From an uncultured Niastella sp. (GTDB lineage Bacteria; Bacteroidota; Bacteroidia; Chitinophagales; Chitinophagaceae), in the NCBI GenBank assembly GCA_966212235.1, contig CBIHPP010000002.1, positions 291,499 to 355,498 of the forward strand: a stretch of 64,000 bases of DNA, written 5' to 3'. This document shows, piece by piece, positions 50,297 to 51,862 of the stretch. The notes under the pieces were generated by a model. The model did no database searches and had not been told where the DNA came from. It worked only from the letters and a program-made list of their open reading frames with translations. Each line of letters opens with the position of its first letter. Position 1 is the stretch's first letter. The position numbers and the translations under genes are program-made.

Positions 50297-51409
50297 ATGA
50301 ACAAGTCAGAAGAACTGAATGCGCTCCGCAGCAACCTGCTGCAAAATGACAGCAGCTGGAATGCCGGCACTAACACGATTTTTGAATTGTCTGAAGCTGA
50401 ACAGGTCAAACGCCTCGGGTATACACCTGGTCCCGGCGAACCAAGCTTTAGCGAACAGGAAGCTATGGCTCAGGCTAACTTACTCAATTTTAATGTACGC
50501 AAAAGCGCTTATGGCAACGAGTTTGGTGCCCCTGCATCATTCGACTGGCGCAACAAAGGCGGACTGAATTTTCTAACGCCTATTAAAGACCAGGGCAGTT
50601 GCGGTTCCTGCGTAGCCTTTGGTACCGTTGCTGCCGTAGAAAGCAGGATCAAGATCTTAAAGAACAATGCGGCTTATGCCGTTGACCATTCCGAAGCACA
50701 CCTGTTCTATTGTTTGGCAAGAGCAGAAAACCGTAACTGCGATAATGGCTGGTGGCCCGACAGAGCCCTTGAAAATTATAAAACGACCGGGGTTACAGAT
50801 GAAGCCTGTTATCCGTATACTGCCGGTGATCAAAACTGCACAGGACGTTGCGCCGATTGGCAAAACCGCGTAACAAAAGTTCAGTCTTATTCCAACAAAA
50901 CGAATATCGCCGCCATTAAAGAGTGGCTGGCTACGAATGGACCAATGATCGCCTGCTTCTCGGTATACTCCGATTTCTTCGCTTATAATAATGGTGTGTA
51001 CCGCAAATCGGCCAATGCCGTATTCAAAGGTGGCCACTGCGTATGCTGCGTAGGGTATAACGATGCCCAACAATTCTGGATCTGTAAAAATAGCTGGGGC
51101 CCAGGCTTTGGTGAGAGCGGTTATTTCAGAATAGGCTATGGCGAATGCGGTATCGACAGTGCCATGCAAGGTGTTGATGCTATTGTTGACACAGCCTGGT
51201 TGAACAATGTAGGCGTAAGAGGTTTGTGGAACAACAAATCGGACCGCAATGCGTATGCTTACCTGGGCAATGAAGGTTGGAAAAGAATATCTCCCAGCAA
51301 TGATACCAATTTCTTCCTCCTGTTGAATGATCTGGCAACTGCTAAATCTGCCGGACGAAATGTTTCTGCCCATGTTGAAAATGGCATTATCACAGAAGTT
51401 TATGCGTAA
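50297..51409 (+). CDS. Papain-like C1A cysteine peptidase with extra C-terminal domain, no signal peptide
   Basis: KDQGSCGSCVAFG (Gln, Cys), GGHCVCCVGY (His), WICKNSWG (Asn). Confidence 0.95.
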   Translation: MNKSEELNALRSNLLQNDSSWNAGTNTIFELSEAEQVKRLGYTPGPGEPSFSEQEAMAQANLLNFNVRKSAYGNEFGAPASFDWRNKGGLNFLTPIKDQGSCGSCVAFGTVAAVESRIKILKNNAAYAVDHSEAHLFYCLARAENRNCDNGWWPDRALENYKTTGVTDEACYPYTAGDQNCTGRCADWQNRVTKVQSYSNKTNIAAIKEWLATNGPMIACFSVYSDFFAYNNGVYRKSANAVFKGGHCVCCVGYNDAQQFWICKNSWGPGFGESGYFRIGYGECGIDSAMQGVDAIVDTAWLNNVGVRGLWNNKSDRNAYAYLGNEGWKRISPSNDTNFFLLLNDLATAKSAGRNVSAHVENGIITEVYA

Positions 51410-51439
51410 CATTTTCCTTCAACTTTTAAAAATTATAAC

Positions 51440-51862
51440 ATGTCCAAGAAGAATATACCTACTGAACTGCCATCGGCAGCAACATCAGTAAGCGAAGCTA
51501 TGGCGCCGGCCGCCCAGCCATTATTACCTGTTTCAAAAATAGAGAACGGTAATTCGAATGGCGGTTCAGCATTGGCTACACCGTTTGATTCTATTTCCCA
51601 GTTTGAAAAAGGACAGGCAGCAGAAGAAGGCATTGGCGCCGGCGTGTGGCATTCTAACAAGAAGGTGGTGGGTGTATGGACCAAAGCCCAAACCCGAAAT
51701 GCATGGGTTAACCTGAGCGATCTTGGCTGGAAAAAGTTTTACAGCGGTTCCGATTCTTCCATCGTAGCCTTCAATATATTGGCCGGAACTGCTTTGGAAA
51801 AGCAGACACTGGTAAATGTATTGATCGAAAATGACCAGATCGTTGAAATGTATGCCTGGTAA
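51440..51862 (+). CDS. Hypothetical protein: low-complexity N-terminus plus a copy of the peptidase C-terminal domain
   Basis: 22 of 71 identities, ungapped, with the last 71 aa of the peptidase (aligned by hand). Confidence 0.85.
   Translation: MSKKNIPTELPSAATSVSEAMAPAAQPLLPVSKIENGNSNGGSALATPFDSISQFEKGQAAEEGIGAGVWHSNKKVVGVWTKAQTRNAWVNLSDLGWKKFYSGSDSSIVAFNILAGTALEKQTLVNVLIENDQIVEMYAW

Follow-up and report, generated by a model that had tools for sequence, protein, structure and literature searches.

A papain-family protease and its neighbouring partner protein share a predicted OB-fold domain in a widespread gene cassette with a chagasin-family inhibitor

The window, by which we mean the whole stretch of 64,000 nucleotides analysed here from an uncultured Niastella sp. 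(contig CBIHPP010000002.1), harbors on its forward strand one gene each for a papain-family protease, a partner protein and a protease inhibitor. The protease gene P0001 (positions 50,297 to 51,409) encodes, according to its open reading frame and Pfam, a protein of 370 amino acids that consists of a prosegment, a C1A catalytic domain and a C-terminal tail. The Pfam domain Peptidase_C1 (PF00112) covers residues 79 to 290 (E = 2.3e-49; 168.9 bits compared with a cut-off of 20.7), and the PDB relatives of P0001 include the cathepsins C, L, H and S with E-values down to 1e-37. All 34 orthologues retain the catalytic residues Q99 and C105 (QGSCGSC), H247 (GGHC) and N265 (KNSWG). The AF2 model of the full-length protein (pLDDT 91.6, pTM 0.87) finds its best PDB matches in the pro-cathepsins L, H, B, K and S, with 305 to 325 aligned columns compared with a mature domain of about 220 residues. 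Based on this model and its PDB matches, residues 1 to 78 (50,297 to 50,530) can be assigned to a zymogen-type N-terminal region, and P0001 is predicted to be a papain-family zymogen with an N-terminal inhibitory prosegment. The prosegment had been missed in an earlier, sequence-only reading of this DNA. No signal peptide was found in P0001, the most hydrophobic N-terminal 12-mer of which reaches 0.13 compared with 3.18 in a neighbouring lipoprotein, and a hydrophobic N-terminal segment is also absent from P0002, P0003, the 34 protease orthologues and 59 partner orthologues.

The partner gene P0002 (51,440 to 51,862) starts 30 nt past the stop of P0001 and encodes 140 amino acids, in which a disordered N-terminal extension precedes a domain that is also present at the end of the protease. 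We refer to this domain as DOM, to its copy on the protease tail (residues 293 to 370; 51,173 to 51,406) as DOM-A and to the homologous C-terminal half of P0002 (residues 66 to 140; 51,635 to 51,859) as DOM-B. DOM-A is matched by our own HMM with E = 3e-24 and falls into the A clade of the domain tree; DOM-B is supported by its AF2 model, by Foldseek and by its position in the B clade. A Trp-rich domain common to the protease tail and a second protein had been proposed from the letters alone for positions 51,194 to 51,862, which reach from residue A300 of P0001 to the stop codon of P0002, and this proposal is borne out by gapped BLASTP (29/85 identities, 34%, E = 1e-8). A recount of both strings reproduced exactly the 22 identities in 71 ungapped positions that had been given, with 95 as the BLOSUM62 score. 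In 100,000 shuffles, neither the identity nor the score was attained even once, and the shuffled scores were 25 at most. The three conserved Trp and the R-N-A tripeptide of that proposal are also correct: W301, W311 and W328 of P0001 correspond to W70, W80 and W97 of P0002, and the tripeptide lies at residues 317 to 319 and 86 to 88, respectively. Moreover, the similarity is family-wide, as W70, W80, R86, N87, W89, G96, W97 and Y138 are conserved to 74-100% in 149 domain segments. Among these, W89 of P0002 represents a fourth family-wide Trp, which is a Tyr in the P0001 tail.

The suggested definition of the family by profile search was carried out exhaustively and returned 342 cluster representatives, among which 165 have E <= 1e-10. 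DOM has no match at E <= 1 in Pfam-A, NCBIfam or PADLOC and none among the PDB sequences, neither as a single sequence nor as a profile (hmmsearch); no sequence relative of solved structure was found. The statement that no named family is recognisable thus holds, and a confident match to a characterised domain, which would have spoken against the earlier view, was sought in the sequence databases and not found. Word searches restricted to the protease tail gave few matches because a stretch of 80 residues offers only few words. DOM is a real and easily recognisable, unnamed domain family of about 75 residues, which is predicted to adopt an OB fold.

P0002 had been regarded as a near stand-alone copy of the domain. 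This is not the case, since the protein has a conserved, disordered N-terminal extension of 65 residues with short motifs. The first one, P7-T-E-L-P-S12 (51,458 to 51,475), is the local form of a family-wide P[TS]xxP[P/S] motif, with P7 and P11 being invariant in 15 homologues. Counting P[TS]xxPP in its strict form only, there are 47 copies in 41 of 59 extensions, compared with 0.75 copies expected. The second motif, T47-P-F-D-S-I-S-Q-F-E-K-G58 (51,578 to 51,613), is the Chitinophagaceae form of a segment recognised by its conservation in homologues, in which P48 and D50 are invariant and T47, S51, E54 and E56 are conserved to at least 90%. Judged by eye, this second motif resembles the repeat unit P.DF.P.E[VI].AL..G of another locus (L063). 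All 60 full-length homologues of P0002 are annotated as "hypothetical protein". We also considered the extension motif as a mimic of the prosegment and found no support for it: an HMM of 64 motif instances gave only negative scores on the 34 protease orthologues, scattered over Pro-rich spots. Neither of the two motifs had been noticed in the earlier reading.

The third gene, P0003 (52,004 to 52,330), encodes a protein of 108 amino acids that belongs to the chagasin family (I42) of cysteine-protease inhibitors and lacks a signal peptide. Pfam assigns Inhibitor_I42 (PF09394) with E = 4.3e-14 and 53 bits, compared with a cut-off of 27.2. Most chagasins encoded by the cassette described below carry the inhibitory loop motifs of chagasin, with NPTTG (L2) present in 46/62, GxGG (L4) in 45/62 and R-x-W-E conserved at the RPW-type loop (L6); P0003 itself has these loops in the variant form SPGTG, GEGG and RSWE and is a predicted inhibitor. 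The chagasin as third gene had likewise escaped the earlier reader. According to a paper from 2016 on a chagasin-like effector of Pseudomonas, the function of chagasins in bacteria had not been elucidated, and most chagasin-bearing Pseudomonas genomes contain no C1A proteases (PMC5014320). The cassette provides prokaryotic chagasins with a co-encoded, endogenous C1A protease as candidate target across many phyla.

The identical order, a leaderless C1 zymogen with DOM-A followed by a disordered extension with DOM-B and then by a chagasin, is found in 53-54 of 63 loci; these come from archaea as well as from over 14 phyla of bacteria. As the loci were located with the narrower alignment A4, the number of 63 is a lower bound and biased to B-type consensus sequences. 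Mostly, 10-25 nt separate the A gene from the B gene, and in several loci the two overlap by 1-11 nt. The distribution of the cassette is very wide but patchy, scattered over bacteria and archaea, which the sequence-only reading had not captured. There is no conserved fourth gene: when 379 neighbouring ORFs were compared with one another by BLAST, no cluster extended over more than three loci, and a Pfam tally of 148 neighbours revealed no recurrent neighbour family. In the region 49,800 to 52,900, a scan for promoters and terminators found no more than expected by chance, with Bacteroidota promoters lying outside the coverage of the scan. Several genomic settings were considered and rejected. 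For a known anti-phage defence system, P0001, P0002 and P0003 have no match in PADLOC-DB 2.0, and the 148 neighbours contain only scattered, mostly single PADLOC matches and are not enriched as in a defence island. For a phage-borne cassette, the IMG/VR scan gave no relative, and Foldseek against viral structures gave nothing meaningful. A plasmid-borne cassette was found in only one of 72,556 plasmid records, a megaplasmid of Deinococcus aetherius.

The AF2 model of DOM-B (pLDDT 90.6) has the topology b1-b2-b3-helix-b4-b5 (elements E6-19, E24-29, E33-37, H42-58, E61-67, E70-76), a predicted barrel of five strands in which the helix follows strand 3 and precedes strand 4, as is characteristic of OB folds. 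Within the full-length model of P0001, the strands and helix of DOM-A have pLDDT values of 88-96. The suggested Foldseek comparison also identified an OB fold (TM 0.7-0.8), which had been missed from the letters. The top 26 matches in the PDB are all OB-fold protomers of AB5-toxin B subunits, proteins that work as oligomers, with TM 0.69-0.80, an identity of about 10% (6-16% across the structural alignments) and weak E-values of about 0.015, none being <= 1e-3. The match of the model to AB5 B subunits is a resemblance at the fold level only, and since small OB folds are mutually alike, it gives no indication of the oligomeric state.

It is nevertheless conceivable, though in our view rather improbable, that DOM-A and DOM-B form a closed, pentamer-like ring as in the hetero-oligomeric B moieties of AB5 toxins, with the protease as the covalent "A" part and the extensions projecting from the protease face. 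AB5 B subunits and the DOM model have the same small OB topology, in which b3 and b4 are linked by a long helix that is superposed in all 26 best matches, and by analogy paralogous DOM subunits might, in principle, assemble into a hetero-oligomer beside a catalytic protease. Furthermore, the A part of the SubAB toxin is a subtilase, a class that also carries DOM-A, and additional B genes occur in some loci (L063). However, DOM shows no sequence homology to AB5 B subunits, its profile matching none of the PDB sequences; its catalytic part is fused N-terminally to DOM; and the cassette proteins have no signal peptide, whereas export precedes the assembly of AB5 B subunits. The hosts of the cassette, moreover, include archaea such as methanogens, as well as Saccharibacteria and Chlamydiota, in which such an exported toxin is not expected.

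The residues that are invariant in both paralogues, W70, W80, R86, N87, W89, G96, W97 and K/R at positions 98 and 99, all sit on the predicted strands b1-b3, and strands b1-b3 are the usual binding face of OB folds. N87, W89, W97 and K99 should point outward according to the side-chain alternation in the predicted b2-b3 hairpin. In the model, this patch of invariant Trp, Arg, Asn and Lys residues, located on the canonical binding face of OB folds, would fit a non-protein ligand equally well. DOM could therefore be an OB fold for ligand binding or targeting, the aromatic and basic b1-b3 face of which binds single-stranded nucleic acid, a glycan or P[TS]xxPP, so that the protease is taken to its target and the free copy competes or cooperates. 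We regard this as a possible, clearly tentative alternative. Ligand binding or targeting, and competition of the free copy for the target of the protease, had also been put forward in the earlier reading, and the comparative data as a whole speak neither for nor against them. In line with this alternative, the domain is always found together with a Pro-rich motif, which is encoded in the same gene or in one of its own. On the other hand, DOM has no sequence similarity to nucleic-acid- or sugar-binding OB families and the genomic context points to no ligand, and ligand binding alone leaves unexplained why there are two deep, always co-inherited paralogues and chains in which A and B are fused.

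The tree resolves DOM into two deep clades, A and B, which are separated by long branches (0.73-1.06, support 99/99) and have matching subclades, and by this sequence comparison DOM-A and DOM-B are two ancient paralogues. The pairwise identities of A and B correlate with r = 0.81, compared with 0.66 for DOM-A and its own fused C1 catalytic domain. Positions specific for the A or the B type are concentrated in the loop and the first half of the helix, with 7 out of 12 located at residues 103-112. Two metagenomic gene calls, P0079 and P0170, are single chains with A followed by B, and P0069 is a C1-A-A tandem protein. The pair also occurs with other proteases: a type-A tail is present on S8 subtilases (L062, Pfam 2e-24, and likewise P0218), DOM forms the tail of an M12A astacin (L078, 7e-55), and in L076 it is fused to a protein with the sequence HEFGHxxGHPDEY, which is probably another zincin. 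A free DOM follows in all three variant loci, the S8 locus L062, the M12A locus L078 and the zincin-like locus L076. Motifs or repeats are also found in variant loci: the S8-type cassette carries P[TS]xxPP in the form PSINPP, a separate disordered protein of L078 has Pro-rich xPxPP repeats of a related kind, and the separate disordered proteins of L063 and L076 have another repeat unit. The DOM pair is independent of the protease class; as it is kept with C1, S8, M12A and a probable zincin, it is unlikely that DOM-B acts on the active site of the protease.

The reading that we favour, and to which we give an even chance, is that DOM is a homotypic adaptor linking the protease to its partner, with prosegment and chagasin restraining catalysis. 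DOM-A and DOM-B would bind each other in a heteromeric assembly and thereby tether the motif-rich partner to the protease within a single complex, in which catalysis would be restrained separately by the N-terminal prosegment and the co-encoded, class-matched chagasin. The face conserved in both copies (W70/W80/R86-N87/W89/G96-W97-K/R) would serve a common job, either the contact between A and B or the reading of the P[TS]xxPP motif, and the paralogue-specific N-terminal half of the helix may set the A or B identity. Oligomerisation or co-assembly of the two copies had already been proposed, and the comparative evidence speaks in favour of it, with the gene order in about 54 of 63 loci, the correlation of r = 0.81, the fusions and the exchange of protease classes; the physical binding of A and B is inferred from these comparative data, and so would be any stoichiometry, target of the motif or cellular role. 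Co-inheritance alone also explains the co-occurrence and correlated divergence of A and B.

Two further explanations start from the tail domain itself. C1A zymogens are able to activate in trans, and P0001 is a predicted zymogen. DOM-A might self-associate so that zymogens trans-activate, with free DOM-B capping or diluting them as a threshold-setter in the way CARD-only proteins do for CARD-caspases. The existence of the C1-A-A tandem and the layered restraint by prosegment, chagasin and free copy would be compatible with such a decoy, which we nevertheless consider doubtful: a simple decoy is not expected to keep a conserved, motif-bearing extension across phyla, and DOM-B is conserved as strongly as the tail it would mimic (mean pairwise identity of 0.54 for B and 0.56 for A). 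Alternatively, DOM-A could be a mere C-terminal domain for folding or stability and P0002 a functionally unrelated duplicate. Beta-rich extension domains at the C-terminus are common on bacterial proteases and also known from archaeal ones, such as PPC and the P-domain or beta-jelly-roll of subtilases, which like DOM-A are small and directly follow the catalytic domain, and DOM-A packs on the catalytic domain with high confidence in the P0001 model (pTM 0.87). However, DOM has no Pfam match to PPC or the P-domain, and those domains have no obligatory free paralogue. That the free paralogue has been kept beside the C1 protease (about 54 of 63 loci), and again beside proteases of other catalytic classes, argues against an unrelated duplicate, and we regard this explanation as very improbable.

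Cruzipain and chagasin of Trypanosoma cruzi and the co-transcribed staphopain-staphostatin operons of bacteria resemble the cassette, in which a papain-family protease is likewise encoded together with a class-matched, predicted tight-binding inhibitor without a signal. In contrast to the cassette, these systems have neither a third partner nor a shared tail domain, whereas in the cassette the paralogous pair and the motif-rich disordered segment are the constant part; the pair is also found with S8 and metallo-proteases, and the chagasin is then absent or replaced. In its logic, the proposed homotypic adaptor has a parallel in prokaryotic conflict systems with their effector-associated and death-like domains, as well as in CARD and CARD-only proteins of caspases, where a small domain on a protease effector is repeated on a partner or decoy. 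By this analogy, homotypic docking would be independent of the catalytic class of the effector. Those adaptors adopt the all-alpha death fold or folds of other kinds and usually pair with STAND NTPases, whereas DOM is a predicted beta-rich OB fold with only a disordered motif carrier as partner and no linked NTPase.

The presence of one accessory pair with cysteine, serine and metallo-proteases points to an undescribed general way to organise or restrain intracellular proteases. Matched inhibitors together with a patchy, horizontally transferred distribution are a signature of conflict systems. One may speculate, with little confidence, that the cassette represents an undescribed, horizontally mobile "caged protease" system of bacteria and archaea, the core of which would be DOM-A, DOM-B and the P[TS]xxPP segment. 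Such a system would consist of a cytoplasmic, hetero-oligomeric AB5-like OB ring with interchangeable C1, S8, M12A and zincin warheads and with class-matched inhibitors as immunity or safety proteins, and would be released by a trigger for conflict, defence or programmed proteolysis.

We found no published description of the DOM cassette; it is not mentioned in the chagasin literature examined, and none of the papers searched joins chagasin with anti-phage activity or Peptidase_C1 with Inhibitor_I42. In RefSeq, the middle gene is annotated as "hypothetical protein", for example on pDAETH-2 of Deinococcus aetherius and in Niastella caeni. Culturable carriers of the cassette are Niastella caeni, Longitalea spp., Deinococcus aetherius, Bradyrhizobium sp. 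McL0615 and Nostoc linckia.

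Three head-to-tail genes, all on the + strand, form the cassette: P0001 (50297-51409, 370 aa) encodes a papain-family protease (Pfam Peptidase_C1, residues 79-290, E=2e-49), P0002 (51440-51862, 140 aa) a partner without any family match, and P0003 (52004-52330, 108 aa) an inhibitor of the chagasin family (Inhibitor_I42, E=4e-14). NCBIfam and PADLOC gave zero matches for all three proteins. The interval highlighted in the sequence-only reading starts at residue 300 of P0001 and ends with the P0002 stop codon, and the 22 ungapped identities in 71 positions claimed there for the protease tail and P0002 are exact, a count that was reached in 0 of 100,000 shuffles. 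The BLOSUM62 score of the two copies is 95 versus a maximum of 25 among 100,000 shuffles, and BLASTP aligns the tail with P0002 over 85 columns (34% identity, E=1e-8). In the genome itself (9.77 Mb, 42 contigs) these two are the only copies of the Trp-rich domain, which we call DOM, with DOM-A on the protease tail and DOM-B at the C-terminus of P0002. P0002 has 60 full-length homologues, none of them named, from Niastella and Longitalea isolates and from metagenomes; their C-terminal 75 residues are almost invariant and the N-terminal 65 are variable apart from short motifs. A DOM profile (A2) of six sequences comprising both copies, scored against 1.84 billion representatives, retrieved 342 proteins at E<=1e-3, of which 165 reached E<=1e-10. 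Most have 120-170 aa with an extension first and the domain C-terminal, some are the bare domain (72-93 aa), and a few of about 365-373 aa are C1 peptidase fusions; one protein, P0069, joins C1 to two tandem DOM copies, and two, P0079 and P0170, carry tandem copies without a peptidase. The signature from 149 segments is W70, L79-W80, R86-N87-x-W89, G96-W97-[KR][KR]-[LI], D105, A118, and I134-x-E-x-Y138 (P0002 numbering). That the domain has no recognised family was also borne out, as the DOM profile had no match among PDB sequences and NCBIfam and PADLOC gave none. Judged by these searches, DOM is a large unnamed family.

A maximum-likelihood tree of 129 DOM domains separates the tail copies (A) from the free ones (B) by long branches (support 99/99); the only two apparent exceptions, a contig-edge fragment and the subtilase tail, are both mislabelled A copies. 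The A and B subclades correspond to each other, and over 57 loci the correlation of pairwise identities is r=0.81 between A and B versus a lower 0.66 between A and its own fused catalytic domain. That DOM-A is a stability domain only is very improbable to us. Inside a locus A and B share just 32% identity, and type-specific HMMs resolve P0079 and P0170 as A-then-B single chains and P0069 as C1-A-A. From the tree and the identities it can be concluded that A and B are two ancient, jointly evolving paralogues. AlphaFold2 on A2 (pLDDT 90.6) gave the order b1-b2-b3-helix-b4-b5, and according to this model DOM is an OB fold. Strands b1-b3 and b4-b5 hold the residues that both types conserve, and of 12 conserved yet type-specific positions, seven are at residues 103-112, which cover the loop and the helix's first half. 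A Foldseek search of the PDB gave as its best 26 matches exclusively protomers of AB5-toxin B-subunits (TM 0.69-0.80), with only about 10% sequence identity and no E-value <=1e-3. A closed AB5-like ring assembly we regard as unlikely; the match itself we read as a fold-level likeness to a compact oligomer-forming OB domain, not as homology. A viral structure library searched with DOM yielded nothing useful.

The full-length model of P0001, built from a 34-sequence alignment (A5; pLDDT 91.6, pTM 0.87), has as best structural matches the pro-cathepsins L, H, B, K and S, with alignments of 305-325 columns. Since these exceed the length of the mature domain, residues 1-78 behave as a prosegment in the model. 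Q99, C105, H247 and N265 are invariant in the 34 sequences. An N-terminal hydrophobic segment is absent from P0001, P0002, P0003, the 34 protease orthologues and 59 partner orthologues; the maximum Kyte-Doolittle 12-mer score is <=1.7 in these proteins versus 3.18 in the neighbouring lipoprotein. As modelled, P0001 is a leaderless zymogen. The cassette chagasins retain NPTTG (46/62), GxGG (45/62) and R-x-W-E, and the P0003 loops read SPGTG/GEGG/RSWE. The role of bacterial chagasins was stated as unresolved (PMC5014320), and in the literature searched no paper connected chagasin to such a cassette. The extensions of 59 partner proteins are rich in A/P/S/E/T and contain 47 copies of P[TS]xxPP in 41 of the 59, versus a mean of 0.75 and a maximum of 4 in 1,000 composition-preserving shuffles. 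The last copy typically lies 15-24 residues ahead of the first Trp of the domain, with (D/E)-A-[A/M]-P-[T/S]-[L/Q]-x-P-P-[A/S] as consensus; P0002 has P7-T-E-L-P-S12 and a clade-specific motif, T47-P-F-D-S...E-K-G58. It is conceivable, though we hold it only tentatively, that a ligand or the Pro-rich motif binds to the conserved b1-b3 face. The extension motif was also checked as a mimic of the protease prosegment, which was unsupported.

Protease classes other than C1 also carry the domain. In a Bacillales MAG (L062) an S8 subtilase (Pfam 2e-24) that lacks a signal peptide ends in a type-A tail; the DOM-B gene after it has PSINPP in its extension, and a chagasin gene is absent; P0218 is a second S8-DOM protein. 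Another Bacteroidota genome (G503, L078, 1993-4205) encodes an M12A astacin (7e-55) of 344 aa with a DOM tail. Next come a bare 76-aa DOM and, as a separate gene product, a disordered protein of 159 aa that has five xPxPP repeats and ends Lys-rich. The last protein, of 115 aa, has no match beyond a weak YscW-like one (E=0.004) and could be a class-matched inhibitor. In an Acidobacteriota MAG (L076) DOM precedes a HEFGHxxGHPDEY domain that we read as a zincin, its Peptidase_M6 Pfam match being weak (E=7e-4) and under the curated cut-off; after it come an unassigned ORF of 200 aa, then a DOM of 72 aa and a disordered protein of 120 aa. In a Methanosarcinales MAG (L063) two DOM genes come after the C1-DOM gene, the first of them short, and between the two lies a separate gene for a 121-aa protein in which P.DF.P.E[VI].AL is repeated four times. 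The separate disordered proteins of 120-121 aa at L063 (1451-1816) and L076 (5213-5575), with P.DF.P.E[VI].AL..G-type repeats, adjoin bare DOM genes. These domain matches confirmed that the DOM family accompanies C1, S8 and M12A proteases, and from the four variants it follows that the constant set is a protease that bears DOM-A, the free copy DOM-B and a disordered segment rich in motifs, the last of these fused to DOM-B in the window and separate in L063, L076 and L078. Independence of protease class argues against DOM-B at the active site and favours DOM-DOM or DOM-motif contacts. That DOM-B is a decoy limiting trans-activation we think rather improbable. Our leading reading, to which we give about an even chance, is that DOM is a homotypic adaptor: the A and B versions would associate and thereby keep the zymogen, a cytoplasmic protease under restraint, together with a partner that bears the motif, and prosegment and chagasin would act as catalytic locks.

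Contigs with distant P0002 homologues showed the same trio in differing surroundings, and scanning one genome of each prokaryotic species for sequence patterns gave at least 63 loci, a set biased by the search patterns and with gene starts assigned by a simple rule. They comprise Archaea (Methanosaeta, Methanosarcinales, Bathyarchaeota) as well as Chloroflexota, Thermomicrobiota, Saccharibacteria, Pseudomonadota (alpha, beta, gamma), Thermodesulfobacteriota, Myxococcota, Cyanobacteriota, Acidobacteriota, Planctomycetota, Verrucomicrobiota, Chlamydiota, Ignavibacteriota, Bacteroidota, Bacillota and Eisenbacteria. With HMMs made for each of the three parts, the order C1-DOM, extension-DOM, chagasin was found in 53-54 of the 63, most others being interrupted by contig ends. 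Prevalence is low and patchy (4/151 genomes of the window's family, 3/401 of its phylum). The DOM tree departs from organismal taxonomy, for example with Methanosaeta beside Anaerolineae, Saccharibacteria and Nostocaceae, which indicates that the cassette spread by horizontal transfer. No common neighbour gene was seen, as 379 flanking ORFs formed no cluster over more than 3 loci; no recurrent Pfam or PADLOC family was found among the neighbours, no defence-island context, and no cassette in IMG/VR. In its three restraint layers, its inhibitors matched to protease class, its exchangeable proteases and its patchy spread by horizontal transfer, the cassette resembles conflict systems.

On the Deinococcus aetherius megaplasmid pDAETH-2 (L079) the trio is annotated 'C1 family peptidase / hypothetical protein / protease inhibitor I42 family protein'; immediately downstream of it, at 4686-8240, are a hypothetical gene and two genes annotated 'caspase family protein', possibly as part of a larger protease cluster. 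A Tannerella MAG (L073, 2104-5240) has two tandem, rearranged cassettes (C1-DOM, chagasin, C1-DOM, DOM-B), and a second, divergent C1 peptidase without DOM tail adjoins the cassette at L025 (5873-7390), L067 (2645-3553) and L072 (2666-3586). In a Chitinophagaceae MAG (G143, L014, 6871-7095, - strand), and also at L048, a bare type-B DOM has no in-frame ATG/GTG/TTG start; the sole nearby ATG at L014 (7121) is out of frame, which points to a frameshift, an unusual start or an error of assembly. There the DOM is followed by a chagasin gene and preceded by a 691-aa protein without Pfam match or DOM tail, which may be an unrecognised protease. Translations of the upstream genes at 45082-47650 in the window suggest cysteine desulfurase SufS, SufE, an Rrf2-type regulator and a small protein for Fe-S assembly; no connection to the cassette was seen. 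Immediately upstream of the cassette, on the opposite strand, the product of 48462-49820 (-) has 452 aa and includes a long K/E/D/R repeat region of high charge (with units such as KEQKDREDKERVA; AT skew strongly negative, -0.395). Together with the repeat-lipoprotein gene, two small lipoprotein-like paralogues at 47743-48198 (-) and 52343-52786 (-), with 31% identity (E=4e-12) and ...CKKDK...KWNLV... in common, bracket the cassette, and the block between them may be an insertion between tandem duplicates.
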